Positions 4,259 to 21,349 of a stretch of 26,093 nt of DNA are shown here, piece after piece. The notes below the pieces were generated by a model that was not told the origin of the DNA, searched no databases, and saw only the letters and a program-made list of their open reading frames with translations. Where the stretch lies: the IMG/VR virus record IMGVR_UViG_2547132272_000023; one strand, given 5' to 3'. This stretch comes from a virus (lineage: Duplodnaviria > Heunggongvirae > Uroviricota > Caudoviricetes). The stretch's first letter is position 1. Every line of letters begins with the position of its first letter. Made by a program: the position numbers and the translations under genes.

Positions 4259-4304
4259 GGCACAAACCTACAGCCTTGAATGAAGGCTTTCCCCGCCTGC
4301 GGTT

Positions 4305-4322: not shown

Positions 4323-4400
4323 AATACCGCGCATTGTTTCACTGCCCCCATCACCGCAACCATAAGGCTCCAGTAAGTTTTTTCTAACGGAGCACGGCTC

Positions 4401-5234: not shown

Positions 5235-5250
5235 TGGAGCACAAAACCCG

Positions 5251-6309
5251 ATGAAGAAGAATACCCGCTTTGCTTTTAACGCTTACCTGCAGCAGCTGGC
5301 GCGTCTGAACGGTGTGGCAGTTGAAGAACTGTCCAGCAAGTTCACCGTGGAGCCGTCTGTGCAGCAGACGCTGGAAGACCAGATCCAGCAGTCCGCCGCT
5401 TTCCTGACGCTGATTAACGTCACGCCAGTGACTGAGCAGTCCGGTCAGCTGCTGGGGCTGGGAGTTGGCAGCACCATTGCCGGAACCACTGACACCACCG
5501 CGAAAGAGCGTGAACCTGTCGATCCGACGCTGATGGTCGATGTGGAATATAAATGCGAGCAGACCAACTTTGACACGGTGCTGACCTACGCGAAGCTGGA
5601 CCTGTGGGCGAAGTTTCAGGATTTCCAGGTGCGCATCCGTGACGCCATCGTGAAACGTCAGGCTCTGGACCGCATCATGATCGGCTTTAACGGCGTGAAG
5701 CGTGCGAAAACCTCCAACCGTAGCGAAAACCCGCTGCTGCAGGATGTGAACAAAGGCTGGCTGCAGAAAATCCGTGAAGATGCACCGGATCACGTCATGG
5801 GCAGCACCACCACGGGCGGTGAAACCACACCGGGTGCGGTGAAAGTCGGGAAAGGTGGCGAATATGCCAACCTGGACGCCGTGGTGATGGATGCCGTCAA
5901 TGAGCTTATCGATGTGGTCTACCAGGACGATGACGATCTGGTGGTGATTTGCGGTCGTGAACTGCTGTCTGACAAGTATTTCCCGCTGGTCAACAAAGAG
6001 CAGGAAAACAGTGAAAAACTGGCTGCCGATATGATCATCAGTCAGAAACGCATGGGTGGCCTGCAGGCCGTGCGTGCGCCGTTCTTCCCGCCGAATGCAC
6101 TGCTGATCACCCGTCTGGATAACCTGTCCATCTACTGGCAGGAAGACACCCGCCGCCGCTCAGTTATCGACAACCCGAAACGTGACCGGATTGAAAACTT
6201 TGAATCCGTTAACGAAGCCTATGTGGTTGAGGACTACCGCTGCGCCGCACTGGTGGAAAACATCCAGATTGGCGACTTCAGCGCCGCAGCAGCAGAAACC
6301 GGAGCGTAA
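5251..6309 (+). CDS. N: Major capsid protein (P2 gpN-like)
   Basis: 352 aa, immediately downstream of the scaffold gene; position and length as P2 N. Confidence 0.85.
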   Translation: MKKNTRFAFNAYLQQLARLNGVAVEELSSKFTVEPSVQQTLEDQIQQSAAFLTLINVTPVTEQSGQLLGLGVGSTIAGTTDTTAKEREPVDPTLMVDVEYKCEQTNFDTVLTYAKLDLWAKFQDFQVRIRDAIVKRQALDRIMIGFNGVKRAKTSNRSENPLLQDVNKGWLQKIREDAPDHVMGSTTTGGETTPGAVKVGKGGEYANLDAVVMDAVNELIDVVYQDDDDLVVICGRELLSDKYFPLVNKEQENSEKLAADMIISQKRMGGLQAVRAPFFPPNALLITRLDNLSIYWQEDTRRRSVIDNPKRDRIENFESVNEAYVVEDYRCAALVENIQIGDFSAAAAETGA

Positions 6310-6312
6310 TTC

Positions 6313-6963
6313 ATGAGCCTGAGTCCCGCACGGCAGCATCGCCTGCGCGTTCAGGCTGAACAGGCCGCCCGCGAGGGCGGCAGCGTTCGCCACGCGTCGG
6401 GCTATGACCTGATGCTGCTGCAACTGGCGGAAGACCGCCGCCGTCTCAAGGGCGTTCAGTCCACGGTCAAAAAAGCGGAAATCAAGGTGGAGCTGCTGCC
6501 GAAGTACGCCGCCTGGGCGGAGGGTGTCCTGGCTGCCGGAGGCGCTCAACAGGATGACGTGCTGATGTACGTGATGCTGTGGCGCATTGATGCCGGAGAT
6601 TATGCCGGGGCGCTGGAGATCGGGCGTCACGCCCTGCGTCATGGCTGGGTGATGCCGTTAGGTAACCGCAACGTGCAGACCGTGCTGGCAGAGGAAATGG
6701 CAGATGCAGCCCAGAGCGCAATGCTTGCCGCCACCGGCTTTGATGCCGATCTGTTGCTGCAGACCCTGGAGCTGACAGACGGTATGGATATGCCGGACCA
6801 GTCACGGGCGCGTCTGCATAAAGCGATTGGCGCTGTCCTGAGTGAAAGAAATCCGGCGTCTGCCCTTAATCATCTCAACCATGCGTTACAGCTCGATCCC
6901 CGCTGTGGCGTGAAAAAAGACAAACAGCAGCTGGAGCGCAGACTGCGCAATGACAGCCGCTGA
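6313..6963 (+). CDS. M: Terminase small/endonuclease subunit (P2 gpM-like)
   Basis: 216 aa ORF starting 4 bp after the N stop; position as P2 M. Confidence 0.8.
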   Translation: MSLSPARQHRLRVQAEQAAREGGSVRHASGYDLMLLQLAEDRRRLKGVQSTVKKAEIKVELLPKYAAWAEGVLAAGGAQQDDVLMYVMLWRIDAGDYAGALEIGRHALRHGWVMPLGNRNVQTVLAEEMADAAQSAMLAATGFDADLLLQTLELTDGMDMPDQSRARLHKAIGAVLSERNPASALNHLNHALQLDPRCGVKKDKQQLERRLRNDSR

Positions 6964-7058
6964 CAGAACGTGCCCCCGCGCACGGGCGGCACGGGGTGGC
7001 GAAAGGCACTGCCACATCAAAACCCCGTCCACCGCCCTCTATTTCAGGAGAAAGCAGC

Positions 7059-7523
7059 ATGAAGTTTGTTGCGCCAGAACAGGCACCGGAACAGGCGGAA
7101 ATCATCAGGAATACGCCGTTCTGGCCTGATGTGGACCTGTCGGAGTTTCGCAGTGTGATGCGCACTGACGGCACGGTGACGCAGCCGCGTTTAAAACAGG
7201 TTGCCCTGTCGGCAATTTCGGAGGTCAACGCAGAGCTGTATGAGTTTCGCAGACGCCAGCAGATGCTGGGGTATGCCTCGCTGGCAGAAGTCCCGGCGGA
7301 ACAACTGGACGGCAAAAGCGAGCGCATTCAGCACTATTTCAACGCGGTTTACTGCTGGGCACGCGCCATGCTCAACGAACGTTACCAGGACTATGACGCC
7401 ACGGCATCCGGTGCGAAGCGAGGCGAGGAACTGGCGGAAGCAAGCGGTGATTTATGGCGTGACGCCCGCTGGGCCATCCGCCGGGTGCAGGATGCGCCGC
7501 ACTGCACAGTGGAGCTTATCTGA
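7059..7523 (+). CDS. L: Head completion/stabilisation protein (P2 gpL-like)
   Basis: Start chosen at ATG 7059, preceded by AGGAG at 7046-7050; the longer ORF from 6996 has no ribosome-binding site. Position as P2 L. Confidence 0.75.
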   Translation: MKFVAPEQAPEQAEIIRNTPFWPDVDLSEFRSVMRTDGTVTQPRLKQVALSAISEVNAELYEFRRRQQMLGYASLAEVPAEQLDGKSERIQHYFNAVYCWARAMLNERYQDYDATASGAKRGEELAEASGDLWRDARWAIRRVQDAPHCTVELI

Positions 7524-7726
7524 TGAAAGTGCGTGCGCATCAGTATGACACGGTGGACGCGCTTTGCTGGCGTCATTACGGGCGCACGCAGGGTGTCACG
7601 GAGCAGGTACTGAAGGCAAATCCGGGGCTTGCCGAATATGGCCCCTTTTTACCTCACGGGCTGCAGGTGGAGCTGCCGGACATTCCGACCACCACCACCG
7701 TGCAGACCGTCCAGCTATGGGACTGA
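7523..7726 (+). CDS. X: Tail protein X (P2 gpX-like)
   Basis: 67 aa, same length as P2 X; start overlaps the L stop. Confidence 0.7.
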   Translation: MKVRAHQYDTVDALCWRHYGRTQGVTEQVLKANPGLAEYGPFLPHGLQVELPDIPTTTTVQTVQLWD

Positions 7727-7729
7727 ATT

Positions 7730-7945
7730 ATGACGCTTGAGCGAATCAGCGCCTTTATCACGTATTGCATCGCCGTCGTGCTGGCCTGGCTGGGCGATTT
7801 GTCCATCAAGGATGCCTCAACGCTGGGCGGCCTGATGATTGGTGTGCTGATGCTGGCTATCAACTGGTACTACAAACACAAAGCCTACCAGCTTCTGCGC
7901 GACGGGCAGATCTCGCGGGAGGACTATGAATCCATCAATCGTTAA
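7730..7945 (+). CDS. Y: Holin (P2 gpY position)
   Basis: 71-aa protein with hydrophobic helices and a charged C-terminus, directly upstream of the endolysin gene. Confidence 0.7.
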   Translation: MTLERISAFITYCIAVVLAWLGDLSIKDASTLGGLMIGVLMLAINWYYKHKAYQLLRDGQISREDYESINR

Positions 7946-8438
7946 ACGCTGCCTTGTCGGGGCCGTGCTGGCTATTGCTGCCACGCTGCCGGGTTTTCAG
8001 CAGCTTCACACCTCCGTGGAGGGGCTGAAACTGATTGCCGATTACGAAGGTTGTCGTCTGCAGCCGTATCAGTGCAGCGCGGGTGTCTGGACCGACGGCA
8101 TTGGTAATACGTCAGGCGTCATTCCCGGCAAAACCATTACGGAGCGACAGGCAGCAGAAGGGCTGATCTCCAACGTGCTGCGTGTCGAGCGGGCGCTGGA
8201 AAGGTGTGTGAAGCAACTGCCGCCGCAGAAGGTGTATGACGCTGCGGTGTCGTTTGCCTTCAACGTGGGAACAGGCAATGCCTGCAGTTCCACGCTGGTG
8301 AATTTACTCAATCAGCGGCGCTGGGCAGATGCGTGCCGACAGTTGCCGCGCTGGGTTTATGTGAAAGGTGTTTTTAATCAGGGGCTGGATAACCGCCGTG
8401 CGCGGGAGATGGCCTGGTGTTTACAGGGAGCAAACTGA
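7926..8438 (+). CDS. K: Endolysin/lysozyme (P2 gpK-like), with hydrophobic N-terminal segment
   Basis: 170 aa; N-terminus MNPSIVKRCLVGAVLAIAATLPG is hydrophobic (possible signal-anchor-release type), followed by a lysozyme-like region; overlaps the Y stop. Confidence 0.8.
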   Translation: MNPSIVKRCLVGAVLAIAATLPGFQQLHTSVEGLKLIADYEGCRLQPYQCSAGVWTDGIGNTSGVIPGKTITERQAAEGLISNVLRVERALERCVKQLPPQKVYDAAVSFAFNVGTGNACSSTLVNLLNQRRWADACRQLPRWVYVKGVFNQGLDNRRAREMAWCLQGAN

Positions 8439-8439
8439 A

Positions 8440-8817
8440 ATGAAAAAGAAATTAATCAGCGGACTGTTTCTGATGTTATGGATGGCGCTGTTAATCGCAG
8501 CAATGGTGTATCCGCAGGGGATTTTTCCGGTACTGGCAGCGTCCGGCGTTTGGGTAGCCTGTTTGCTGACATGGGCGGTAATTCCGGTAGCACTGGCTGC
8601 GTTAATTAAGAATGGCCCGCTCTGGCAGGAGTTAAGGGCATCTTTGCTGAAGACAATTACCCGAAAAGAAAACGTATTTACCAGTTGGGTGATGCGATTG
8701 CTGATTGTTGTAAGTCTCGCCTGGACGGGGTGGGCTATTACCCTGGTCTTTTATCTACTGACCGTTATTGCCTTCTGGATCACCCGTAATCAGATGGCGC
8801 AACAGGTAGCAGCATGA
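8440..8817 (+). CDS. lysA: Lysis timing membrane protein (P2 LysA-like)
   Basis: Start at ATG 8440 preceded by GGGAG (8426-8430), one nt after the K stop; multi-pass hydrophobic protein. Confidence 0.6.
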   Translation: MKKKLISGLFLMLWMALLIAAMVYPQGIFPVLAASGVWVACLLTWAVIPVALAALIKNGPLWQELRASLLKTITRKENVFTSWVMRLLIVVSLAWTGWAITLVFYLLTVIAFWITRNQMAQQVAA

Positions 8818-9242
8818 ACCGGTTGCTGCTGGTTGTGCTGACGTTATTACTGGCGGCGCTGGGCTGGCAGACGTGGCGGCTGGCTGATGCCAGCCAGACC
8901 ATCAGCACGCAGGCAGACGAGCTGCAGAGCAAAAGCCAGGCACTGGCAAAGAGCAATAGCCAGCTTATCAGCCTGTCCATTCTGACTGAAACCAATAACC
9001 GGGAGCAGGCGCGGCTCTATGCCGAAGCAGAACAGACCAGCACGCTGCTGAGACAACGACAACACCGGATCGAGGAACTGAAACGTGAGAACGAGGATTT
9101 ACGCCGCTGGGCTGATACTCCTTTGCCTGCTGACATTATCCGGCTGCGGAAACGTCCGGCACTCACCGGAGGTATGGCTTACCGTCAGTGGTTGTCCGCG
9201 AGTGACGCCGTGTCGGCTGGATCAGGCAACGCCGCGCACTAA
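8814..9242 (+). CDS. lysB: Inner-membrane spanin, Rz-like (P2 LysB-like)
   Basis: 142 aa; N-terminal transmembrane helix then a Q/E/R-rich coiled-coil region; ATGA overlap with lysA. Confidence 0.7.
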   Translation: MNRLLLVVLTLLLAALGWQTWRLADASQTISTQADELQSKSQALAKSNSQLISLSILTETNNREQARLYAEAEQTSTLLRQRQHRIEELKRENEDLRRWADTPLPADIIRLRKRPALTGGMAYRQWLSASDAVSAGSGNAAH

Positions 9243-9375
9243 CGGTGATCTGAACGCATTGCTGGATGAAACGGAGGCCGCCTGGGCGGTCTGTGCAGAC
9301 AAAGTGGACATGATTATTGCATGTCAGGAGCGAAACAGTGAACAAACCACAATCCCTGCGCCACGCCCTCAATAA
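9085..9375 (+). CDS. lysC: Outer-membrane lipoprotein spanin, Rz1-like (P2 LysC-like), out of frame within the lysB 3' end
   Basis: Signal peptide with lipobox LTLSGC near the N-terminus; nested in a different frame across the lysB 3' end and running into R, the usual embedded spanin architecture. Confidence 0.6.
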   Translation: MRTRIYAAGLILLCLLTLSGCGNVRHSPEVWLTVSGCPRVTPCRLDQATPRTNGDLNALLDETEAAWAVCADKVDMIIACQERNSEQTTIPAPRPQ

Positions 9376-9769
9376 AGCAGTGCCTTATGTCCGTAATAAC
9401 CCGGACAAACTGCATCTGTTTGTGGATAACGGTTCGCTGGTTGCCACGGGGGCCAACTCCATGTCATGGGAGTACCGCTACACCCTGAACGTGGTGATTG
9501 AGGATTTCAGCGGCGACCAGAATCTGCTGATGGCCCCGGTTTTGCTGTGGCTGCGGGATAACCAGCCCGATGCCATCAATAACCCGGCGTTACGGGAAAA
9601 GCTATTCACCTTTGATGTGGATATTTTGCGCAACGATGTCTGTGATATCAGCCTTAACCTGCAACTGACGGAACGTGTGCTGGTCAGCACTGACGGCAGT
9701 GTGTCGAGCGTTGAAGCTGTAGCAGAACCCGATGAACCTGAAGAAATGTGGACGGTGAAACGTGGCTGA
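9338..9769 (+). CDS. R: Tail completion protein (P2 gpR-like)
   Basis: GTG start at 9338 with AGGAG 8 nt upstream; the track ORF from 9317 begins with TTG and has no ribosome-binding site. Confidence 0.7.
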   Translation: MNKPQSLRHALNKAVPYVRNNPDKLHLFVDNGSLVATGANSMSWEYRYTLNVVIEDFSGDQNLLMAPVLLWLRDNQPDAINNPALREKLFTFDVDILRNDVCDISLNLQLTERVLVSTDGSVSSVEAVAEPDEPEEMWTVKRG

Positions 9770-10208
9770 ACTGCAGAAGGTGGACGACTGGCTGAGTGCC
9801 TTGCTGGCGAATCTGGAACCAGCCACGAGAAGCCGCATGATGCGCCAGCTGGCGCAGGAACTGCGCCGGACACAGCAGCAGAATATCAGGATGCAGCGCA
9901 ATCCAGATGGCAGCAGTTATGAACCGCGCAGGGTAACAGCACGCAGCAAGAAGGGGCGCATCAAACGTCAGATGTTTGCAAAGCTGCGCACCACAAAATA
10001 CCTGAAAACTGCCGCCAGCGCCGACTCTGCCAGCGTGCAGTTTGAAGGTAAGGTGCAGCGCATTGCCCGTGTTCACCATTACGGCCTGCGAGATCGCGTC
10101 AGTCGTAAGGGACCGGAGGTGCGTTACGCAGAGCGTCGCCTTCTGGGTGTAAATGATGATGTTGAGGCAATGACCCGCGACATGATTCTGCAATGGCTGG
10201 CGGGGTGA
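9762..10208 (+). CDS. S: Tail completion protein (P2 gpS-like)
   Basis: 148 aa (P2 S about 150 aa); overlaps the R stop. Confidence 0.7.
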   Translation: MAELQKVDDWLSALLANLEPATRSRMMRQLAQELRRTQQQNIRMQRNPDGSSYEPRRVTARSKKGRIKRQMFAKLRTTKYLKTAASADSASVQFEGKVQRIARVHHYGLRDRVSRKGPEVRYAERRLLGVNDDVEAMTRDMILQWLAG

Positions 10209-10212
10209 TCTT

Positions 10213-10230
10213 TGTATCAGCACTGATACA
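10213..10230. promoter_or_regulatory. TGT-N12-ACA dyad upstream of V; putative Ogr-dependent late promoter PV
   Basis: TGTatcagcactgatACA in the 68-bp S-V intergenic region, about 47 bp upstream of the V start codon. Confidence 0.45.
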
Positions 10231-10276
10231 AGTTGCAGCACTGCCGCCTTTCTTCCCCTGATGGCAACCTTTCCCT

Positions 10277-10855
10277 ATGAACGCACAATTAACCGAAATC
10301 ATGCGCCTTATCACCAACCTGATCCGCACAGGGGTAGTCACCGAAGTGGACAGGGAAAACTGGCTTTGCCGGGTGAAAACGGGCGAGCTTGAAACCAACT
10401 GGATCAGCTGGCTGACGCTGCGTGCCGGGAATGCCCGTACATGGTGGCGACCATCGGAAGGTGAGCAGGTGGTGCTGCTGAGTCTGGGCGGCAATCTGGA
10501 AACCGCCTTTGCGCTGCCCGCTGTCTATTCGAATCAGTTCGCACCACCGTCGACGTCGGCGGACGCCTGCGTGACAGAACATCCTGACGGTGGCTGGTTT
10601 GAATACGAACCCGCCACCGGGCGCTGGTATGTCAGGGGCATCAAATCAATGGTCATTGAGGCTGCTGACAACATCACCATGAAAACCAGTGAGTTTGTAC
10701 TGGAGGCTGACCGCACGCGCATTAACAGCGAAGTGGTGATCAATGGTGGCGTTACCCAGGGCGGCGGAGCGATGAGTTCTAACGGGATCGTGGTTGATGC
10801 GCATCAGCATACTGGCGTCCTGAAAGGCGGCGATACAACCGGAGGCCCGGTATGA
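10277..10855 (+). CDS. V: Baseplate assembly/spike protein (P2 gpV-like)
   Basis: 192 aa, first gene after the putative PV promoter; position as P2 V. Confidence 0.75.
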   Translation: MNAQLTEIMRLITNLIRTGVVTEVDRENWLCRVKTGELETNWISWLTLRAGNARTWWRPSEGEQVVLLSLGGNLETAFALPAVYSNQFAPPSTSADACVTEHPDGGWFEYEPATGRWYVRGIKSMVIEAADNITMKTSEFVLEADRTRINSEVVINGGVTQGGGAMSSNGIVVDAHQHTGVLKGGDTTGGPV

Positions 10856-11211
10856 CGCTTTATAGCGGGATGAACAATACCAGCGGCAAAGTCATTACTG
10901 ATATTGATCATCTGCGCCAGTCGGTGCGGGACATTCTGCTGACACCGCAGGGTAGCCGTATTGCCCGCCGGGAATATGGTTCCCTGCTGTCGGCACTGAT
11001 AGATCAGCCACAAAATCCGGCATTACGCCTGCAGGTCATGTCGGCAGTGTATGTGGCGCTGAGTCGCTGGGAGCCACGGTTGACGCTGGATTCCATCACC
11101 ATCAACAGCAATTTTGACGGTTCAATGGTGGTGGAGCTGACCGGGCGGCGGAATAACGGTGTGCCTGTGTCCCTTTCCGTATCAACAGGAGCAGAGAATG
11201 GCAGTGATTGA
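10852..11211 (+). CDS. W: Baseplate wedge protein (P2 gpW-like)
   Basis: 119 aa (P2 W about 115 aa); ATGA overlap with V. Confidence 0.75.
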   Translation: MTLYSGMNNTSGKVITDIDHLRQSVRDILLTPQGSRIARREYGSLLSALIDQPQNPALRLQVMSAVYVALSRWEPRLTLDSITINSNFDGSMVVELTGRRNNGVPVSLSVSTGAENGSD

Positions 11212-12106
11212 CCTTTCGCAGTTGCCTGCACCGCAGATTGTGGATGTGCCGGACTTTGAGACGCTGCTTGCCGAACGCAAGGCAGAATTTGTGGCGCTTC
11301 ATCCGAAAGATGAGCAGGAAGCAGTGATCCGCACGCTGGAACTGGAATCTGAACCCGCCACTAAATTGTTGCAGGAGAACGCTTACCGTGAGTTGCTTCT
11401 GCGCCAGCGCATTAACGAAGCCGCGCAGGCGGTGATGGTGGCTTACGCGATGGGTGGCGATCTTGACCAGCTCGCTGCCAACTACAACGTGACACGCCTG
11501 ACGGTGACGCCTGCTGATAATGATGCTGTGCCGCCCGTTGCAGCTGTGATGGAAAGCGATGAAGCGTTGCGCCTGCGTGTGCCTGCAGCCTTTGAAGGGC
11601 TTTCTGTTGCGGGGCCAACTGCAGCTTATGAATTTCATGCCCGAAGCGCCGACGGTCGGGTGGCGGATGCCAGTGCAACCAGCCCGGCACCTGCAGAGGT
11701 GGTACTGACTGTCCTTAGCCGCGAAGGCGATGGAACTGCAGAAAAAGACCTGCTGGACGTGGTGGAAAAAGCTCTGAACAGTGAGAACGTCCGCCCGGTG
11801 GCTGACCGTCTTACGGTTCGCAGCGCAGAAATCATCCCGTATCGCGTGGAAGCCACCATTTTTCTCTATCCGGGACCGGAAGCAGAGCCGGTAATGGCAG
11901 CGGCAAAAGCCAGTCTGCAGAAGTACATTGCCAGCCAGACGAGGCTTGGTCGGGATATTCGCCGTAGCGCCATCTTTGCTGCTCTGCATGTTGAGGGTGT
12001 TCAACGTGTGGAACTGGCTTCTCCGCTGGCGGATGTGGTCCTGAACAAAACACAGGCGGCATCATGTACGCAGTGGAGCGTAACCAACGGAGGAACGGAT
12101 GAATAG
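11198..12106 (+). CDS. J: Baseplate assembly protein (P2 gpJ-like)
   Basis: ATG 11198 preceded by AGGAG (11184-11188) gives 302 aa, the P2 J length as recalled; the longer track ORF from 11159 lacks a ribosome-binding site. Confidence 0.8.
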   Translation: MAVIDLSQLPAPQIVDVPDFETLLAERKAEFVALHPKDEQEAVIRTLELESEPATKLLQENAYRELLLRQRINEAAQAVMVAYAMGGDLDQLAANYNVTRLTVTPADNDAVPPVAAVMESDEALRLRVPAAFEGLSVAGPTAAYEFHARSADGRVADASATSPAPAEVVLTVLSREGDGTAEKDLLDVVEKALNSENVRPVADRLTVRSAEIIPYRVEATIFLYPGPEAEPVMAAAKASLQKYIASQTRLGRDIRRSAIFAALHVEGVQRVELASPLADVVLNKTQAASCTQWSVTNGGTDE

Positions 12107-12704
12107 TCTGCTGCCACCGGGTTCAACTTCACTGGAGCGCCGACTGGCGCAAACCTGTAGCGGGATTTCTGATTTGCAGGTGCCGCTGCGTGACTTGTGG
12201 AATCCGGCTACCTGTCCGGTCAGCTTCCTGCCTTATCTCGCCTGGGCGTTCTCTGTGGATCGCTGGGACGAGGGCTGGACAGAAAGCGTCAAACGCCAGG
12301 TAGTGAAGGATGCTTTTTATATTCATCAGCATAAAGGAACCACCAGTGCCGTGCGGCGGGTGGTGGAACCGTTCGGATTCCTGATCCGCATTATTGAGTG
12401 GTGGCAGACCGGAGAAACACCGGGCACGTTTCGCCTGGACATTGGCGTGCAGGATCAGGGCATCACTGAAGATACCTATCTGGAACTTGAGCGGCTGATA
12501 AGCGATGCCAAACCATGTAGCCGTCACATGATCGGCATGTCCATCAATCTGCAGACCAGCGGTCCGCATTGGGTTGGGGCCGCCAGCTATCTTGGCGAAG
12601 AAATCACGATCTATCCGTATATCAACGAAACAATTATTTCCGGCGGCACCGCGCATGAAGGCGGGGCGGTCCATGTTATTGACACAATGAGAGTGAATCC
12701 ATGA
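12099..12704 (+). CDS. I: Baseplate/tail-fibre attachment protein (P2 gpI-like)
   Basis: 201 aa, overlaps the J stop; position as P2 I. Confidence 0.75.
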   Translation: MNSLLPPGSTSLERRLAQTCSGISDLQVPLRDLWNPATCPVSFLPYLAWAFSVDRWDEGWTESVKRQVVKDAFYIHQHKGTTSAVRRVVEPFGFLIRIIEWWQTGETPGTFRLDIGVQDQGITEDTYLELERLISDAKPCSRHMIGMSINLQTSGPHWVGAASYLGEEITIYPYINETIISGGTAHEGGAVHVIDTMRVNP

Positions 12705-14128
12705 GCACAAAATTTTATACCCTGCTGACGGATATTGGCGCGGCGAAACTTGCCAGCGCCGCCGCGCTCGGTGTGCCGCTAAAAATTACCCATATGGCGG
12801 TGGGCGATGGCGGCGGAGCATTGCCGACGCCGGACGCAAAGCAGACTGCACTGGTAAATGAGAAACGCCGGGCTGCGCTGAATATGCTCTATATCGACCC
12901 GCAGAACAGCAGCCAGATTATTGCTGAACAGGTGATCCCTGAAAACGAGGGCGGTTGGTGGATACGTGAAGTGGGCCTGTTTGATGAGTCAGGGGCATTG
13001 ATTGCCGTGGGCAACTGCCCGGAAAGCTATAAACCGCAACTGGCTGAAGGCAGCGGGCGTACCCAGACCGTACGGATGGTGCTGATTACCAGCAGTACCG
13101 ATAATATCACACTGAAAATTGACCCTTCAGTGGTGCTGGCAACCCGCAAGTATGTGGATGACAAGGTGCTTGAGCTTAAGGTGTATGTGGATGACCTGAT
13201 GGCAAAGCATCTTGCTGCTGCAGATCCTCATACGCAGTATGCGCCCAAAGACAGCCCAACATTGACTGGCACGCCGAAAACGCCAACAGCACCGGCGGGA
13301 ACTAACACGACTCAGATTGCTAGCACGGCATTTGTGCAGGCGGTGGTCACTGCGCTAAATAACGCACTGGCGTTGAAAGCTCCACTGGCAAGTCCGGCCC
13401 TGACCGGAACGCCGACGGCTCCGACTGCAGCGCAGACGGCGAACAATACGCAGATTGCCACCACGGCATTTGTGAAAGCGGCAGTTGCCGAGATGGTCGG
13501 TTCATCGCCGGAGGCGCTGGATACGTTAAATGAATTGGCTGCTGCGCTGGGGAATGATCCTAACTTTGCGACAACAGTAATGAGTGCGCTGGCGGGAAAA
13601 ATGAACAAAGCAGCTAATGGCGCTGATATTGCCGATGTTTCTGCTTTTCTAAAAAACCTTCATCTTGGGGAGGGCAGTGCGTTGCCAGTCGGTGTTCCTG
13701 TTCCGTGGCCTACTGCAATACCGCCGGAAGGTTGGTTGAAGTGTAATGGAGCATCATTCAGTTCCTCGCAATATCCGAAACTGGCGCAGGTTTATCCGTC
13801 ATTAAAATTACCAGATCTACGCAGTGAGTTTATTCGCGGCTGGGACGATGGGCGTGGCGTAGACGCTGGACGTCAGGTTCTAACGTCTCAGACTGATGCT
13901 ATGCAGCCGATTATCGGCTCCATTGGCTATGGTACAAACGGTATGTTTACTTATGCTGATGGAGCTTTTACGGGTATAGATCGTGAAAGCGGAGACGGTA
14001 TTGTTACACAGGCAACAAGCATCTCACAATATAAACAGGCTCACTTAGATTCAAGTACGATAACACGAACAGCGGCAGAAACACGTCCACGGAATATTTC
14101 ATTTAATTACATTGTGAGAGCAGCATAA
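12701..14128 (+). CDS. H: Tail fibre protein (P2 gpH-like N-terminal part, exchanged C-terminal collar-type domain)
   Basis: N-terminal region including NELAAALGNDPNFATT resembles the conserved part of P2 H; C-terminal part carries a tail-collar-like segment (PVPWPTAIPPEGWLKCNG...LPDLRSEFIRGWDDGRGVDAGR) encoded by lower-GC DNA. Confidence 0.8.
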   Translation: MSTKFYTLLTDIGAAKLASAAALGVPLKITHMAVGDGGGALPTPDAKQTALVNEKRRAALNMLYIDPQNSSQIIAEQVIPENEGGWWIREVGLFDESGALIAVGNCPESYKPQLAEGSGRTQTVRMVLITSSTDNITLKIDPSVVLATRKYVDDKVLELKVYVDDLMAKHLAAADPHTQYAPKDSPTLTGTPKTPTAPAGTNTTQIASTAFVQAVVTALNNALALKAPLASPALTGTPTAPTAAQTANNTQIATTAFVKAAVAEMVGSSPEALDTLNELAAALGNDPNFATTVMSALAGKMNKAANGADIADVSAFLKNLHLGEGSALPVGVPVPWPTAIPPEGWLKCNGASFSSSQYPKLAQVYPSLKLPDLRSEFIRGWDDGRGVDAGRQVLTSQTDAMQPIIGSIGYGTNGMFTYADGAFTGIDRESGDGIVTQATSISQYKQAHLDSSTITRTAAETRPRNISFNYIVRAA

Positions 14129-14724
14129 TGACAGAAGCGAAACTAAATAATGAGTTTATAGCTGTGGAATCTGGCAATATAACGGTGTTTAACTTTGATA
14201 TTGAAACTCGTGAATATCTTTCTTCTAGTGTTGAATTTCTTGCTGTAGGGGTTGGGATTCCTGCTAATTCATGCATTGATATGCCGGGTAAAAGTAAAAA
14301 AGGGTTAACCATTTGCCGGACTAAGGATCTTACCGCGTGGGAATATATTGCTGATCATCGAGGTGAGACTGTTTACAGCACCGAAACTGGCAAAAAAATA
14401 GCTGTAACAGTGCTCGGCGATTACCCAGAAAAAACTACGAAACTACCTCCTGCTACACCATACGATAAGTGGAACGGTAGTGCATGGGTGACAGATACCG
14501 AGATGCAGCACGAGGTTGACGTGGAAACTGCTGATCAGAAGAAAGCGGAGCTTCTGGCAAAGGCTCAGCTAACAATCAATCTATGGCAGACAGAACTACA
14601 ATTAGGAATTATCAGTGATGAAGATAAAGTCAGACTAATCACCTGGATGAATTACATCAAAGCGGTGCAGTTGGTAGACACGTCAACTGCGCCAGATATA
14701 ACGTGGCCGAGGAAGCCCGAGTGA
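14128..14724 (+). CDS. G: Tail fibre assembly chaperone (P2 gpG position)
   Basis: 198 aa, start overlaps the H stop (TAATG); lower GC than the backbone, consistent with co-exchange with the H C-terminus. Confidence 0.7.
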   Translation: MTEAKLNNEFIAVESGNITVFNFDIETREYLSSSVEFLAVGVGIPANSCIDMPGKSKKGLTICRTKDLTAWEYIADHRGETVYSTETGKKIAVTVLGDYPEKTTKLPPATPYDKWNGSAWVTDTEMQHEVDVETADQKKAELLAKAQLTINLWQTELQLGIISDEDKVRLITWMNYIKAVQLVDTSTAPDITWPRKPE

Positions 14725-14809
14725 CTGAGAATTAAATGGTTAGTATCATCCTCCCCCACACTGCCTATATGGTATGAATACGAGGGGGAGGCTGTTTGTT
14801 GTCTGTTTC

Positions 14810-14818
14810 TGTGATAAT
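14810..14818 (+). promoter_or_regulatory. Putative extended -10 element (TGtGATAAT) for the acyltransferase cargo gene
   Basis: TG motif one base upstream of a GATAAT hexamer, about 35 bp upstream of ATG 14852; no good -35 hexamer. Confidence 0.3.
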
Positions 14819-14851
14819 ATTAGATTCCCGTTTTTTAATAAAAAAATCAAT

Positions 14852-15862
14852 ATGAAAGAGAATAAAATACGTTCTGCCGATGGCGTGAGAGGTTTCGCTT
14901 TGATGATTGTTGTGGTGATGCATTCTACGGGACTATTCTTTCCCTCACTTCATGATCATCTCGGAGGTACGGGGCAGCCCGGTGTTTGGTTGTTTTTTGT
15001 TCTTAGCGCCTTTTTGTTGACACATAAATTTATTAATTCTGGTTTTTCGTTTTTGAATGTGTTGAGTTATCTTTTAGGGCGAACAATAAGGATATTACCG
15101 ATTTTTTATATTGCAGTATTAATTTATTACCTTATGGGATTTTATGATTTAGAGAAAATGAAATCGATAATTTCATTTGATAGTACTTACATCCATCTCT
15201 GGACTATTCCGATAGAATTCAAGTTTTACTTTTTGTTGCCGATTGTGGTTTATCTCGCATCTAGTATCCAGAAAGTTGCAGGTAGAAAATATTCTTTGTT
15301 GTTTTTGATATTGTTAACCTTAGCGTTCGCTTTTATATACCCTTATACGGATGACGAAATCAACGGTAGGCTACCGTATTACATTCCTGTTTTTATGTAT
15401 GGAATTATAATTGCGTTTATGTATAACTATTTTCAAATTAAAATATCATCTCTCGTTAGTGATGGGGTGTCAATTGCGATTATATTAATATTTATAATGT
15501 TGACCCCTCCTTTTCAGGGGGCTAATGGTTGGCTGGGTAATAAATTTGTGGTATTGGGGCCATTTATTGCTCTCTTTGTATATCTGCAAGTAAATTCCAG
15601 TGGGTATGTAAGCGCGGTTTTATCTTCAAAAATCATGGCGGATTTGGGGAAATATAGTTTTTCAATTTATTTGTTTCATATAATGATAATTTTTATTGTT
15701 TATCCTAAATTTTTGGATAATGTTACTGCATACTTAGTTACTATAGCTTTATGTATTGGCGGTGGGGCTATTGCCTATCATTGCATTGAATCTCCCTTGG
15801 AATCGTTCAGACATAAGCTTATGAAAAGAATAACGCAGGCTTATCAGAATCAAAATATTTAA
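14852..15862 (+). CDS. Acyltransferase-3 family integral membrane protein; putative O-antigen/surface-polysaccharide acetyltransferase (lysogenic conversion cargo at the Z/fun position)
   Basis: N-terminus KIRSADGVRGFALMIVVVMH fits the conserved R...G.RG.A......H start of acyltransferase-3 proteins; about ten hydrophobic helices; strongly AT-rich; located between G and FI. Start placed at ATG 14852 rather than the track start 14774. Confidence 0.7.
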   Translation: MKENKIRSADGVRGFALMIVVVMHSTGLFFPSLHDHLGGTGQPGVWLFFVLSAFLLTHKFINSGFSFLNVLSYLLGRTIRILPIFYIAVLIYYLMGFYDLEKMKSIISFDSTYIHLWTIPIEFKFYFLLPIVVYLASSIQKVAGRKYSLLFLILLTLAFAFIYPYTDDEINGRLPYYIPVFMYGIIIAFMYNYFQIKISSLVSDGVSIAIILIFIMLTPPFQGANGWLGNKFVVLGPFIALFVYLQVNSSGYVSAVLSSKIMADLGKYSFSIYLFHIMIIFIVYPKFLDNVTAYLVTIALCIGGGAIAYHCIESPLESFRHKLMKRITQAYQNQNI

Positions 15863-15872
15863 GTAAAAGCAA

Positions 15873-15908
15873 AAAAGGCTCTCGTCAACCGACGAAGCCT
15901 TTTAAAAC
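15873..15908 (+). terminator. Rho-independent terminator downstream of the acyltransferase gene
   Basis: AAGGCTCTCGTC-aacc-GACGAAGCCTT hairpin followed by a TTTTAAAA run, 11 bp after the stop codon. Confidence 0.45.
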
Positions 15909-15996
15909 GAGTATTAATTCCCGTCCTGTAAAGTGCCCCCTATCCCAGAACAACGTTTTTAGTTATCAACGCCGTTCCGAAAATTTCCTGCGACGT

Positions 15997-16014
15997 TGTG
16001 TGATTAACCGTACA
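15997..16014. promoter_or_regulatory. TGT-N12-ACA dyad upstream of FI; putative Ogr-dependent late promoter PF
   Basis: gtTGTgtgattaaccgtACAac (extended GTTGT/ACAAC dyad) about 77 bp upstream of the FI start; AGGAGG ribosome-binding site at 16075-16080. Confidence 0.45.
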
Positions 16015-16090
16015 ACGCACATCAGCTGTCTGCATGGCGTAATCAATACAACATAGGGCGAAGCCTAATCCAATCAGGAGGTTCGCCACT

Positions 16091-17263
16091 ATGGCTCAGG
16101 ATTACCACCACGGGGTGCGCGTTGTTGAAGTCAACGAAGGCACCCGATCCATTACCACGGTGAGCACCGCCATCGTGGGTATGGTCTGCACGGGCGATGA
16201 TGCCGATGCAAAAATGTTTCCTCTTAATAAACCTGTACTGATCACTGACGTGCTGACTGCCAGCGGTAAAGCGGGTGAGTCCGGCACGCTGGCCCGTTCG
16301 CTGGATGCCATCGCTGACCAGGCAAAACCCGTGACCGTTGTTGTGCGTGTGCCGCAGGGTGAAACGGAAGAAGAAACCACGACCAATATCATCGGCGCAG
16401 TGACTGCTGAAGGTAAAAAAACAGGCATGAAAGCCCTGTTATCTGCCCAGACACAGCTCGGCGTTAAACCGCGCATTCTCGGCGTGCCAGGTCACGATAA
16501 CAAAGCCGTTGCTACTGAGTTGCTGAGTGTGGCGCAAAGCCTGCGTGGGTTTGCCTACCTGTCAGCGTATGGCTGCAAGACGGTACAGGAGGCGATCACT
16601 TACCGTGAAAATTTCAGCCAGCGCGAAGGAATGCTGATCTGGCCTGACTTTACTGGCTGGGACACGGTGCTGAATGCCGAAGCAACGGCATATGCCACCG
16701 CCCGTGCGCTTGGTCTGCGTGCCAAAATTGATGAGCAGACCGGGTGGCACAAAAGCCTGTCCAACGTGGGCGTGAACGGTGTCACCGGAATTTCTGCAGA
16801 TGTGTTCTGGGATCTGCAGGACCCGGCAACCGATGCAGGTCTGCTGAACCAGAACGACGTCACCACACTTGTGCGTAAAGACGGTTTCCGCTTCTGGGGT
16901 TCCCGCTGCCTGAGTGATGACCCGCTCTTTGCCTTCGAAAACTACACCCGCACGGCGCAGGTGCTGATGGACACGATGGCAGAAGCACACATGTGGGCGG
17001 TGGATAAACCGCTTAACCCGTCGCTGGCCCGCGACATTATCGAAGGTATCCGCGCCAAAATGCGCAGCCTGGTCAGTCAAGGCTATCTCATTGGTGGTGA
17101 TTGCTGGCTGGATGAGTCGGTGAACGACAAAGACACGCTGAAAGCCGGAAAACTCACCATCGACTATGACTACACGCCAGTGCCGCCACTTGAAAATCTG
17201 ATGCTGCGCCAGCGCATCACCGATCAGTACCTGGTGAATTTTGCCAGCCAGGTCAGCGCGTAA
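16091..17263 (+). CDS. FI: Contractile tail sheath protein (P2 gpFI-like)
   Basis: 390 aa (P2 FI about 396 aa); N-terminus [32 protein letters not shown] closely resembles the P2 FI N-terminus as recalled. Confidence 0.9.
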
Positions 17264-17272
17264 GGGGACAAC

Positions 17273-17788
17273 ATGGCTTTACCACGCAAATTAAAACACC
17301 TGAACCTGTTTAACGACGGGAACAACTGGCAGGGGATCGTTGAGTCGCTGACGCTGCCGAAATTCACCCGCAAATATGAGAAGTATCGCGGTGGCGGAAT
17401 GCCGGGGGCGGTGGATGTGGATCTGGGACTGGATGACAGTGCACTGGATACAGAATTTTCCATTGGTGGTACTGAACTGCTGCTGTTTAAGCAGATGGGC
17501 AAAGCCACGGTGGATGGCATCCAGCTGCGCTTTACCGGCTCTATCCAGCGTGACGATACCGGGGAAGTGCAGGCTGTGGAGCTTGTGGTGCGTGGACGTC
17601 ACAAAGAAGTGGATTCCGGCGAGTGGAAGACGGGCGAAAGCAACACCACCAAAGTGACCAGTACCAACAGCTACGCGAAGCTGACCATCAATGGTGAGGT
17701 GCTCTATGAAGTGGACCTTATCAACATGGTGGAAATTGTGGACGGTGTAGACCTGATGGAAGCGCACCGCAACGCCCTCGGCCTCTGA
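17273..17788 (+). CDS. FII: Tail tube protein (P2 gpFII-like)
   Basis: 171 aa (P2 FII about 172 aa), immediately after the sheath gene. Confidence 0.9.
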   Translation: MALPRKLKHLNLFNDGNNWQGIVESLTLPKFTRKYEKYRGGGMPGAVDVDLGLDDSALDTEFSIGGTELLLFKQMGKATVDGIQLRFTGSIQRDDTGEVQAVELVVRGRHKEVDSGEWKTGESNTTKVTSTNSYAKLTINGEVLYEVDLINMVEIVDGVDLMEAHRNALGL

Positions 17789-17842
17789 TCTATCTGAACG
17801 GCGCGGGATACCGCGCCAGAACCCAATTTACAGGACAACAAA

Positions 17843-18145
17843 ATGAGCGATAAGCAGACTGAAAAGACCATTCAACTGGATACCCCTATCAAGCGCGGTA
17901 AAACAGAAATTACCGAAATTGTGCTGCGTAAACCGCAGTCCGGTGCGCTGCGCGGTACACGCCTGCAGGCCATTATGGATATGGATGTGAACGCGATGAT
18001 GACCGTGATCCCCCGCATCTCCAGTCCGGTACTGACTGCACAGGAAATTGCAGAGATGGACCCGGCAGATCTCACTGCCATGTCGGTTGAGGTTGTCACT
18101 TTTTTGTTGAAGAAGTCGGTGCTTGCCGGTTTACCGACAGCCTGA
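17843..18145 (+). CDS. E: Tail assembly chaperone (P2 gpE-like)
   Basis: 100-aa ORF between tube and tape-measure genes; contains the T_TTT_TTG slip site near its 3' end. Confidence 0.75.
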   Translation: MSDKQTEKTIQLDTPIKRGKTEITEIVLRKPQSGALRGTRLQAIMDMDVNAMMTVIPRISSPVLTAQEIAEMDPADLTAMSVEVVTFLLKKSVLAGLPTA

Positions 18146-18279
18146 CGGTTGACGATCTGGTGGCAGATATCGCCACCATTTTTCACTGGCCGCCATCCGT
18201 TACTGACGTTATGCCGCTGACCGAAGTGCTGGAATGGCGGTATAAAGCGATTCAGAGAAGCGGGGCCAACGATGAGTAA
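17843..18279 (+). CDS. E+E': Tail assembly chaperone frameshift product (E+E'), made by -1 programmed ribosomal frameshifting at 18100-18106
   Basis: Heptamer T_TTT_TTG at 18100-18106 in the E frame; the -1 frame is open from 18106 to TAA at 18277-18279, overlapping the T start codon. Confidence 0.6.
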
Positions 18280-21200
18280 TAATAACCTGCGGCTGCAGGT
18301 CATTCTTAATGCGGTTGACAAACTCACCCGCCCATTCCGTGCTGCACAGGCCAGTTCGAAAGAGCTGGCTGGCGCAATCAGAAACTCCCGTGACGCATTA
18401 AAGCAACTCAATCAGGCGGGTAACAGCCTGGAAAAATTTCGCAAGCTGCAGGCCGATAACAAGAAGTTAGGCGACAGGCTGAACTATGCCAGACAGAAGG
18501 CTAATTTGCTTAGCTCTGAGCTGGAGGCGATGGAACAACCATCACAACGGCACCTTGTGGCTTTAGGTCGGCAAACGCTGGCAGTCCAACGCCTGGAAGA
18601 ACAACAAAAATATTTGCAGAAGCAAACGGCGCTTGTGCGTGCAGAACTGTACCGGGCGGGAATTTCTGCGAAAGATGATGCGGGAGCAACTGCCCGTTTA
18701 GCCCGTGAAACATCACGTTATAACCAGGAATTGTCGAAACAGGAGGCGCGGCTGAAGCGACTGGGTGAAGCTCAGCGCAGGATGAATGCGGCGCGTGCCA
18801 GTTATGCCCGTTCGCTGGAGGTGCGCGATCGTATTGCAGGAGCCGGAGCCACTACCACGGCTGCAGGGCTGGCAATGGGGACGCCAGTGATGGCGGCAGT
18901 AAAAAGCTATACCAGCATGGAAGATGCCATGAAAGGTGTGGCAAAGCAGGTCAATGGTCTGCGTGACGATAATGGAAACCGTACTGCACGTTTTTATGAA
19001 ATGCAGGATGCCATCAAGGCTGCCAGCGAACAGCTGCCGATGGAAAACGGTGCGGTGGACTTCGCCGCACTGGTTGAAGGTGGGGCGCGCATGAACGTCG
19101 CAAACCCTGACGACAGCTGGGAAGACCAGAAACGTGACCTGCTGGCCTTCGCCAGCACAGCAGCAAAGGCGGCAACAGCCTTTGAGCTGCCAGCGGATGA
19201 ACTGTCAGAAAGTCTGGGGAAAATCGCTCAGCTCTACAAAATCCCTACCCGCAATATTGAACAGCTCGGTGATGCGCTGAACTATCTGGATGATAACGCC
19301 ATGTCGAAAGGGGCGGACATCATTGATGTGATGCAACGCCTGGGCGGTGTGGCTGACCGTCTGGATTATCGTAAAGCGGCGGCGCTGGGTTCCACCTTCC
19401 TGACACTGGGCGCTGCGCCGGAGGTTGCAGCCAGTGCAGCAAACGCGATGGTGCGTGAATTGTCCATTGCCACCATGCAGAGCAAGAGTTTCTTTGAAGG
19501 GATGAATCTGCTGAAACTCAATCCTGAAGTGATTGAAAAGCAGATGACGAAGGATGCGATGGGAACTATCCAGCGTGTGCTGGAGAAGGTGAACGCACTG
19601 CCGCAGGACAAGCGTCTGTCTGCCATGACTATGTTGTTTGGTAAAGAGTTTGGCGATGACGCGGCGAAACTGGCAAACAACCTGCCGGAACTACAGCGCC
19701 AGCTAAAACTGACAGCGGGCAATGATGCGCTCGGCTCCATGCAGAAAGAATCCGACATTAACAAGGATTCACTTTCTGCGCAGTGGTTGCTGGTCAAAAC
19801 CACTGCACAGAATACCTTCAGCAGCCTGGGCGAAACGCTGCGCCAGCCGCTGATGGATATTCTGTACACGGTGAAAAGCATCACGGGGGCGTTGCGCCGC
19901 TGGGTGGAAGCTAACCCGGAACTGATAGGCACACTGATGAAAGTAGCGGCTGTTGTGGCTGCGGTTACCCTAGGCCTCGGCACCTTAGCGGTGGCGCTGG
20001 CTGCAGTGCTGGGGCCGCTGGCAGTCATCCGTCTGGGATTCTCTGTGCTGGGTATCAAAACGTTACCTTCCGTTACGGCAGCAGTAACACGAACCAGCAG
20101 CGCGTTGTCCTGGTTAGCTGGCACTCCACTGGCACTGCTGCGACGCGGGCTTGCTTCATCGGGCAACGCAGCGGGTTTACTTACTGCGCCGTTGTCGTCT
20201 TTGCGCCGCACGGCATCACTGACGGGGAATGTCCTGAAAACTGTAGCAGGTGTGCCGGTTGCACTGTTGCGGTCTGGATTATCCGGTTTACGTGCTGTTG
20301 CTGTGATGTTTATGAATCCACTGGCAGCACTACGCGGTGGACTGGCTGCCGCAGGCGCGGTGCTGCGAGTACTGGCATCCGGTCCGCTGGCGATGCTGCG
20401 CGTTGCCCTGTATGCCATATCTGGTCTGTTAGGTGCTCTGCTCAGTCCGATAGGTCTTGTGGTTACTGCACTGGCGGGCGTGGCGCTGGTTGTCTGGAAA
20501 TACTGGCAACCCATCACCGCATTTCTCGCTGGTGTGGTGGAAGGATTCAAAGCGGCGGCAGGTCCCATCAGTGCAGCATTCGAACCACTTAAGCCTGTGT
20601 TTCAGTGGATTGGCGACAAAGTACAGGCGCTGTGGGGCTGGTTTACTGATCTGCTGACGCCCGTTAAGTCGACCTCTGCCGAACTGCAGAGTGCAGCGGC
20701 AATGGGGCGGCGATTCGGAGAGGCACTGGCGGAAGGGCTGAATATGGTCATGCATCCGCTGGACTCCCTGAAATCCGGCGTTTCCTGGTTGCTGGAGAAA
20801 CTCGGCATTGTCAGTAAAGAGGCTGCAAAAGCGAAACTGCCGGAAAGCGTGACGCGTCAGCAACCTGCGACGGTGAATGCAGACGGTAAAGTGATAATGC
20901 CATCGGGTGGTTTTCCGTCATGGGGATATGGCTTTGCGGGGATGTATGACAGCGGCGGGTATATCCCGCGCGGGCAGTTCGGCATTGTCGGTGAAAACGG
21001 GCCGGAAATTGTCAACGGTCCGGCAAACGTGACCAGCCGGAGAAATACCGCTGCACTGGCTGCGGTTGTCGCCGGAATGATGGGCGTTGCTGCCGCGCCA
21101 GCAGAGCTTCCACCGTTGCATCCTTTGGCACTTCCCGCGAAAGGCGGTGAAGCGATGGTGAGTCGCGCAGCTGCTGTGCCGCCCGTTCACCGGATTGAGG

Positions 21201-21349
21201 CACCGACGCAGATCATCATCCAGACGCAGCCAGGACAAAGTGCGCAGGATATTGCGCGGGAGGTGGCACGCCAGCTTGATGAACGTGAACGCAGGCTGAA
21301 GGCAAAAGCCAGGAGTAACTACAGCGATCAGGGGGGATACGACGCATGA
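18272..21349 (+). CDS. T: Tail tape measure protein (P2 gpT-like)
   Basis: 1025 aa; coiled-coil-rich N-terminal part, hydrophobic Ala/Leu/Gly-rich central segment; position after E/E'. Confidence 0.85.
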   Translation: MSNNNLRLQVILNAVDKLTRPFRAAQASSKELAGAIRNSRDALKQLNQAGNSLEKFRKLQADNKKLGDRLNYARQKANLLSSELEAMEQPSQRHLVALGRQTLAVQRLEEQQKYLQKQTALVRAELYRAGISAKDDAGATARLARETSRYNQELSKQEARLKRLGEAQRRMNAARASYARSLEVRDRIAGAGATTTAAGLAMGTPVMAAVKSYTSMEDAMKGVAKQVNGLRDDNGNRTARFYEMQDAIKAASEQLPMENGAVDFAALVEGGARMNVANPDDSWEDQKRDLLAFASTAAKAATAFELPADELSESLGKIAQLYKIPTRNIEQLGDALNYLDDNAMSKGADIIDVMQRLGGVADRLDYRKAAALGSTFLTLGAAPEVAASAANAMVRELSIATMQSKSFFEGMNLLKLNPEVIEKQMTKDAMGTIQRVLEKVNALPQDKRLSAMTMLFGKEFGDDAAKLANNLPELQRQLKLTAGNDALGSMQKESDINKDSLSAQWLLVKTTAQNTFSSLGETLRQPLMDILYTVKSITGALRRWVEANPELIGTLMKVAAVVAAVTLGLGTLAVALAAVLGPLAVIRLGFSVLGIKTLPSVTAAVTRTSSALSWLAGTPLALLRRGLASSGNAAGLLTAPLSSLRRTASLTGNVLKTVAGVPVALLRSGLSGLRAVAVMFMNPLAALRGGLAAAGAVLRVLASGPLAMLRVALYAISGLLGALLSPIGLVVTALAGVALVVWKYWQPITAFLAGVVEGFKAAAGPISAAFEPLKPVFQWIGDKVQALWGWFTDLLTPVKSTSAELQSAAAMGRRFGEALAEGLNMVMHPLDSLKSGVSWLLEKLGIVSKEAAKAKLPESVTRQQPATVNADGKVIMPSGGFPSWGYGFAGMYDSGGYIPRGQFGIVGENGPEIVNGPANVTSRRNTAALAAVVAGMMGVAAAPAELPPLHPLALPAKGGEAMVSRAAAVPPVHRIEAPTQIIIQTQPGQSAQDIAREVARQLDERERRLKAKARSNYSDQGGYDA

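Follow-up and report, generated by a model that had tools for sequence, protein, structure and literature searches.

Background

Phages have been known to swap tail-fibre modules since the early 1990s, and mosaic tail fibres in P2, P1, lambda and T4 were reportedly described by Haggard-Ljungquist in 1992 and by Sandmeier in 1994. In P2 the genes for the tail fibre (H) and for the protein next to it (G) close the operon V-W-J-I-H-G, which is followed by FI. P2 gpH has an N-terminal domain of family PF12571, a shaft motif and a breakpoint at about amino acid 300, and the gap between G and FI is a slot for cargo, which in P2 is Z/fun. A recombination hotspot at about amino acid 300 has been found with GARD in the fibres of 186-like phages (PMC8986868).

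The DNA analysed here, called the window throughout, is the whole stretch of 26,093 nucleotides. Its fibre locus is like that of P2 in gene order, N-domain, shaft motif and the breakpoint at about amino acid 300. It differs in the cargo, which is an acyltransferase (AT3), and in the place of its latest junction, which lies at about amino acids 120-165 of H and not at amino acid 300. Two phages of the genus Elveevirus, Cartapus and 4LV2017, have a backbone that is 96-100% identical in nucleotides to the window on both sides of the block described below. In Cartapus the tip segment is invertible and is accompanied by a Gin-like invertase; the tip of 4LV2017 is a different one, and both phages are without AT3.

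Our main reading, to which we give a probability of roughly 0.85, is that the window consists of a Cartapus/4LV2017-type backbone in which a block of about 3 kb was exchanged with another P2-like prophage by homologous recombination.

Phage, host and gene order

The window represents the late region of a prophage that is P2-like (Peduoviridae, Elveevirus-type) and adjoins ybjL/ybjM in an Escherichia chromosome. Klebsiella phage 4LV2017 is 96% identical to it over 77% of the window length, and E. coli phage Cartapus (Peduoviridae, Elveevirus) is another near relative. The host was taken to be Escherichia because the right flank carries genes for ybjL-like and YbjM proteins, and because an exact look-up returned the H and G proteins as annotated from Escherichia. 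A megablast search with positions 13300-16100 in 5,426 complete genomes of E. coli gave no copy of the cassette, the matches being restricted to its shaft and FI edges. An assembly artefact is excluded, since 44 contigs have an identical H sequence on record and the order H-G-AT3-FI was the same in every context examined.

The late operon is of the P2 type, V-W-J-I-H-G, followed by the AT3 open reading frame and then by the sheath gene FI, which starts at 16091. The order I-H-G within this operon, followed by FI, is that of the P2 record. The two genes of main interest are:

12701-14128, plus strand, tail fibre gene H, 475 amino acids
14128-14724, plus strand, chaperone gene G, 198 amino acids, overlapping the stop codon of H as TAATG

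Borders of the exchanged block

The borders were located by comparison with the Cartapus-type relatives (Cartapus itself and the locus L015) on the one side and a Citrobacter freundii prophage (L102) on the other:

13060-13195, plus strand, left crossover zone, where identity and informative sites switch from Cartapus to L102
16048-16148, plus strand, right crossover zone, from informative sites and the FI start at 16091

Identity to Cartapus and L015 is 98-100% up to about 13060, 0.88-0.90 at 13061-13180 and 0.73-0.80 at 13181-13600, and identity to L102 rises across the left zone from 0.82 to 0.92-0.98. In a three-way comparison, the informative sites change from agreement with Cartapus only to agreement with L102 only between 13082 and 13195. 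At the right edge agreement with L102 only extends to 16048 and agreement with Cartapus only begins at 16069/16148, while identity to L102 falls from 0.98 to 0.90 and then to 0.8 past 16132. To the right of the block, identity to the Cartapus-type relatives returns at 93-97% after 15995/16090, and Cartapus and L015 are again 98-100% identical from about 16150.

Between these borders, Cartapus, L015 and the 4LV2017-type relatives have no nucleotide homology to 13601-15995. The backbone of L102 is 80-90% identical to the window, and the stretch from about 13120 to about 16130 is 92-99% identical, mostly about 97%. A block that is about 97% identical on an 80-90% identical backbone and absent from backbones of 98-100% identity has moved as one unit of about 3 kb between diverged P2-like backbones. 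Remnant prophages of Enterobacter asburiae hold the same arrangement, AT3 included, collinear and 78.7% identical in nucleotides over 13664-16887.

A preliminary description of this DNA had read H and G as a mosaic in which the fibre tip travels together with its chaperone, and the lack of homology to 13601-15995 in backbones of 98-100% identity bears this out. It had placed the crossover at the conserved shaft motif and the end of the exchanged unit at G, and both of these have to be moved. As judged from the identity profile, the crossover that formed the present phage is at about 13060-13190, some 350-500 nucleotides upstream of the motif and at the end of the N-domain. The exchanged unit continues through AT3 and the pF promoter to about 16050-16150.

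The informative sites on the left are interleaved and the junction is graded over 13060-13195, which could reflect more than one event. The C. freundii copy of the block is interrupted by an IS element.

Domains of the tail fibre H

The H protein was divided as follows:

12701-13150, plus strand, N-terminal domain for attachment to the baseplate, the part of H that belongs to the backbone (Pfam PF12571, amino acids 1-150, E 1.6e-65)
13253-13336 and 13391-13474, plus strand, two fibre-shaft repeats SPxLTGTP...TQIAxTAFV (regular expression)
13529-13600, plus strand, motif NELAAALGNDPNFATT with the adjoining VMSALAGK, a deep modular joint and GC3 change point
13691-14128, plus strand, collar/tip receptor-binding domain (Pfam PF07484 Collar and PDB matches)

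The PF12571 match scores 220 bits against a gathering cutoff of 23, so that H begins with a P2-type gpH N-domain, and it is this domain that is 98-100% identical in nucleotides to Cartapus and L015 up to about 13060. Relatives hold one additional shaft unit of 28 amino acids, resulting in an indel at 13343/13358. A left junction at 13343, as suggested by the ends of BLAST HSPs, was considered and rejected: site by site the HSP spans the stretch of 73-80% identity, position 13343 marks a change in repeat number only, and the decay of identity starts at about 13060-13190.

The motif NELAAALGNDPNFATT corresponds to amino acids 277-292 of H, nucleotides 13529-13576; it had been described at about 13531-13580, and its existence is confirmed with this slightly different span. 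P2 H, lambda stf, P1 S, Fels-1 and Gifsy-1 all contain the motif segment, and matches to it also occur in actinophage minor tail proteins, where they end at amino acids 300-303 of H. The statement that it is common to P2, P1, lambda and Mu is right for the first three and not for Mu, as Mu S gave no match with the regular expression and E=2.3 with tblastn. A full-text literature search with the motif string returned no match.

Downstream of the motif H turns into a tail-collar-like segment, as had been proposed. The Collar family (PF07484) matches amino acids 331-378 with E 1.3e-14 and 54.3 bits against a cutoff of 24, which identifies the domain as a collar. For amino acids 324-473, the PDB matches are the short tail fibre 9cuy (9.6e-21), the T4 gp37 tip 2xgf (1e-14) and gp12 (1ocy). 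In the collar domain and a C-terminal strand ...NI(A/S)FNYIVR, H has significant sequence similarity to these three structures (2XGF, 1OCY and 9CUY). T4 gp37 differs in having a long needle and head, whereas the tip of H has only a variable insert of about 60 amino acids. The AF2 monomer model of the tip is poor (pLDDT 63), and the fold search made with it ranks 2xgf and 1ocy first, repeating the result at the sequence level.

In an alignment of 47 homologues, amino acids 316-390 and 451-475 are conserved and amino acids 391-450 (nucleotides 13871-14050) are hypervariable. This core is presumed to be the determinant of specificity that contacts the receptor, most likely LPS.

When distal H and G were searched separately, as the preliminary description had suggested, the best matches of distal H came from mixed lineages (HK97-like, P1-like and P2-like). 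DNA homology to P2 ends at 13599, and a tblastn search with the collar gave nothing in the P2 locus (L008) at E<=1e-5, so that the distal part is unlike P2 H. As neither P2 H nor P2 G matches the collar or the G of the window at this threshold, a host range other than that of P2 is plausible, though still within the genus Escherichia as far as the host of this prophage shows.

Recurrent joints and a relict invertase site

Ends of homology were surveyed in 80 species-representative loci encoding relatives of the H N-terminus. Over 40 distant loci lose homology at 13159-13164, where the N-domain ends. In about 20 loci, P2 H and lambda stf among them, DNA homology ends at 13599-13600, eight residues past the motif. 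Further recurrent ends are found at 13343/13358, at about 13660-13690 (collar start) and at 16075-16090 (FI start). Two features of this region are:

13647-13672, plus strand, decayed crossover site TTCTAAAAAACCTTCATCTTGGGGAG for an invertase of the Gin/Hin type, within the linker, 16/26 matches
14066-14131, plus strand, conserved island at the 3' end of H and the start of G, 80-88% identical in nucleotides in distant genera with flanks that do not align

The sequence TTCTAAAAAACCTTCATCTTGGGGAG aligns with the intact sites TTCTCGCATACCTTGGTTTGGGAGAA of Cartapus and L015. The second joint, at about 13660, is this decayed invertase crossover site, and the homology to E. asburiae starts at 13664, within the region of the site.

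Domains of the chaperone G

G consists of two domains:

14128-14358, plus strand, N-domain, tip-specific
14359-14724, plus strand, C-domain, conserved

Amino acids 78-198 of G match PF02413 Caudo_TAP with 115.7 bits against a cutoff of 22.1, which places G among the Tfa proteins, and amino acids 132-198 match Mu Tfa U (5yvq_B). We infer that G is a tail-fibre assembly chaperone. The conserved C-terminal domain of Mu Tfa (gp50/U, PDB 5YVQ) aligns with G, while the N-domain of G has no detectable similarity to that of Mu Tfa.

The N-domain is present in 24 of 25 loci with a collar and in none of the 43 without one (p=1.7e-17); the C-domain extends to 20 loci that lack a collar. An N-domain that is variable and tied to collar tips in this way fits the two-domain model of Tfa (PMC9608196). 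Across the loci, collar identity and N-domain identity do not correlate (rho 0.21, n=24), and the data thus support co-occurrence of tip and N-domain but not tight co-divergence.

Acyltransferase, terminator and late promoter

The part of the block to the right of G contains:

14852-15862, plus strand, AT3-only acyltransferase, Oac-like (PF01757); the open reading frame opens at 14774 and the likely start is ATG 14852
15877-15903, no strand assigned, hairpin flanked by runs of A and T, probably terminating the V-W-J-I-H-G(-AT3) operon
15997-16014, plus strand, TGT-N12-ACA dyad, presumably the site through which Ogr/Delta activates the late promoter pF

The AT3 reading frame matches PF01757 Acyl_transf_3 with 94.4 bits against a cutoff of 31, and a fusion to SGNH is absent. 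The best PHROG match, the O-acetyltransferase phrog_3333, aligns from amino acid 27, and nucleotide homology to a relative of 70% identity (L107) starts at 14849. Both the R-X10-H motif RGFALMIVVVMH and RTIR (an RXXR motif) are present, as in an acyltransferase of the AT3-only Oac type, which has R/K-X10-H in TM1 and RXXR in the first cytoplasmic loop. Mutagenesis has shown RXXR to be essential in OacA and R/K-X10-H in OafA/OafB (PMC9558356).

AT3 shares with Oac (OacA) of Shigella phage Sf6 an AT3-only architecture of about 336 amino acids and the motifs R-X10-H and RXXR. The two differ in location, as the Sf6 Oac type lies next to int/att whereas AT3 lies here inside a P2-like late operon, directly downstream of the receptor-binding genes. 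The latter position is shared with the homologues of 43% and 70% identity in P22-like and other prophages: relatives of 43% follow P22-like tailspikes, and in L107, a prophage of another type, the gene stands behind a different fibre and Tfa pair. A relative of 66% is found in an Ewingella chromosome where phage structural genes are absent nearby. Because its relatives stand beside other types of receptor-binding protein and in a non-phage context, AT3 is a separable, low-GC moron or passenger and not an obligate partner of this fibre. PADLOC gave no match for AT3. The enzyme probably adds O-acetyl groups to a polysaccharide on the surface of the lysogen.

It is tempting to regard tip, G and AT3 as a co-transferred 'bind-and-mask' unit in which AT3 acetylates the very sugar recognised by the collar tip; we consider this doubtful. 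The three are found together in Escherichia, Citrobacter and Enterobacter prophages, and they are the part kept in a decayed Enterobacter prophage. The carriers may go back to one acquisition, however, the relatives of AT3 pair with other types of receptor-binding protein, and the IS element in the C. freundii copy counts against the idea as well.

The prediction of the hairpin at 15877-15903 falls on the minus strand. At the corresponding position the P2 record lists a terminator. Scans of 14500-16200 for sigma-70 promoters and terminators gave nothing above shuffled expectation, and a promoter for AT3 can therefore not be claimed. The dyad at 15997-16014 agrees with TGT-N12-ACA, which we take to be the consensus of P2 late promoters, and is on this ground presumed to be an Ogr/Delta site. 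The P2 record has an activator site annotated upstream of FI.

Base composition

The late-gene backbone (1501-13343 and 16091-22928) has a GC content of 0.562 with a standard deviation of 0.02. Within H, GC is 0.548 at 12701-13342 and 0.574 at 13343-13600, and drops to 0.466 in the distal part at 13601-14128 (z -4.3), a value as low as which was found in 0 of 1764 backbone windows. GC3 within H changes from 0.58 to 0.34; the best change point is codon 276 (nucleotide 13526), the likelihood being near-equal over 13520-13607. G has a GC content of 0.432 (z -6.1), its N-domain (14128-14358) 0.377 and the acyltransferase gene 0.339 (z -13). The drop past the motif and the non-uniform composition of H and G were thus correctly noted from the start, and the low-GC tract extends past 14724, through the acyltransferase gene, to about 16000.

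A milder drop from the H N-terminus to collar and G, with a mean of 3-5 GC points, is seen in 22 of 27 related loci. As the drop is in part generic to collar and Tfa modules, composition by itself is weak proof of a recent import.

Origin of the block

Among sequenced phages, distal H reaches at most 59% amino acid identity (in HK97-like, P1-like and P2-like phages) and G at most 73% (Enterobacter phage phiT5282H). Close copies of the block were found only in P2-like prophages, namely those of C. freundii (97% in nucleotides) and E. asburiae (78.7%), which argues for an exchange within the peduoviruses. If the block entered this phage rather than left it, the immediate donor was most likely another P2-like prophage and not lambda, P1 or Mu. 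No possible donor was found in which a backbone of plainly different type carries a near-identical block. The wider cassette family is common to several phage families.

A direct import of distal H and G from a lambdoid, P1-like or Mu-like phage, with the crossover at the motif, would agree with the homologous cassettes in HK97, HK106, P1-like and other phages, with the sharing of the motif by lambda stf and P1 S, and with the GC3 change point at the motif. We nevertheless hold it to be unlikely. In these phages the tip is only 46-59% and G 51-54% identical in amino acids, whereas the Citrobacter and Enterobacter P2-like prophages carry the block at 97% and 78.7% nucleotide identity, collinear as far as FI. 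The present left junction, at 13060-13195, is also away from the motif, although an older event of direct import may have taken place at 13600.

Divergence of fibre tip and chaperone in place, driven by diversifying selection and AT-biased mutation and without any exchange, appears very improbable to us. Collar and Tfa modules are indeed generally somewhat lower in GC than the H N-terminus (the 22 of 27 loci mentioned above) and the core of the tip is hypervariable, but such divergence fits neither a block that is 97% identical between backbones of 80-90% identity and non-homologous between backbones of 98-100%, nor the sharp change of identity at both edges and the presence of the unrelated AT3 gene inside.

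That the region is an invertible, phase-variable switch of host range, like the G segment of Mu or the C segment of P1, is hardly credible. The sister phages Cartapus and L015 do have such a switch, with alternative tips, inverted repeats of 75 nt and a homologue of Gin, and at 13647-13658 a left half-site can still be recognised in the window. The right half of this site is destroyed, however, and an inverted-repeat search of the window gave no partner for it. There is no serine invertase reading frame between 13600 and 16090 such as Cartapus has, the window has no alternative tip or Tfa, and one orientation and gene order was seen throughout the contexts examined.

Under the preferred reading, the exchange between P2-like prophages, the left crossover would have taken place where the N-terminal baseplate domain of H ends, at about 13.1 kb, and the right crossover in the conserved pF promoter and FI start, at about 16.1 kb. 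The block comprises the two-repeat shaft, the NELAAALGNDPNFATT segment, the linker with the dead invertase site, the collar tip, G, AT3, the terminator and the pF promoter. In the resulting phage, the variable core of the collar would contact the receptor, most likely LPS, the N-domain of G would be matched to the collar-type tip with the conserved C-domain driving trimer assembly, and the Oac-like AT3 would probably O-acetylate the surface polysaccharide of the lysogen.

Conclusion

A swap of the host-recognition module is ordinary textbook phage biology, here mapped finely in a temperate P2-like phage, and the current understanding is unchanged by this case. Should the 'bind-and-mask' idea be true, a single recombination of about 3 kb would bring new host specificity together with matching self-exclusion. 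Five conserved patches of this locus serve as anchors for recombination: the N-domain end, the motif of the shaft, the relict of the invertase site, the junction of H with G, and the promoter pF. Through them a tip, its matched chaperone and a lysogenic-conversion gene pass between backbones. The joints are of use in building fibre chimeras for retargeted phages and tailocins, as they indicate the places for cutting and the need to move G together with the tip.

Cargo genes

The slot between the Tfa chaperone gene G and the sheath gene FI holds Z/fun in P2, whereas in the window it is occupied by an Oac-like AT3 acyltransferase gene. This gene lies inside the exchanged block, the unit of about 3 kb that carries distal H and G, but beyond the limits of the cassette of the preliminary description (13600-14724). 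The features discussed here are listed below.

Features of the window
1-1410, + strand: 469-aa ORF matching PD-T7-1 (PADLOC, E 3.5e-196), adjoining portal gene Q
13647-13672: relic of a Gin/Hin-type crossover site, within the FLKNLHLGE coding sequence
14066-14131: short conserved island, 3' end of H and start of G
14774-15862: Oac-like AT3 acyltransferase, likely start 14852, GC 0.34
23473-25804: ybjL-like gene (Asp-Al_Ex + TrkA_C) and ybjM, in the host flank

The catalytic motifs of the acyltransferase are intact in the window. In the E. asburiae remnant prophages (L098-L101), from which most structural genes are gone, the genes retained include G, AT3 in intact form and a 5'-truncated H without the conserved shaft motif. 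At 7678-8658 of L102, the C. freundii counterpart of the block, the AT3 gene is truncated by an IS element with a DDE_Tnp_1 transposase.

The ORF beside gene Q has a GC content of 0.33-0.35 and gave no match in a Pfam search; its PADLOC match is an anti-phage defence protein. The ORF is a defence moron occupying a P2-type cargo slot. The S to V intergenic slot (10208-10277) is empty in the window, and is filled with differing cargo in sister prophages (L005/L091, L092/L095, L102 and L003), namely AAA_15/AAA_21 with a 229-aa ORF, DUF6216, or a 174-177-aa ORF. The right end of the prophage was placed at roughly 23.0-23.4 kb, followed by the host flank.

Tail fibre gene

Cartapus and L015, sister phages in which tip inversion is still operating, keep an intact version of the crossover site that is a relic in the window. 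In a phage database search with the H shaft segment around the motif, several hundred Mycobacterium, Gordonia and Microbacterium phages gave matches to their minor tail proteins, with further matches in Burkholderia, Caulobacter and Pseudomonas phages. The segment is a very widespread structural element, not specific to enterobacterial phages.

The island at the H/G junction has 80-88% nucleotide identity in Pectobacterium, Erwinia, Rosenbergiella, Xenorhabdus and Serratia loci, in which the sequences on either side fail to align. The island may act as a joint for the re-assortment of tip and chaperone.
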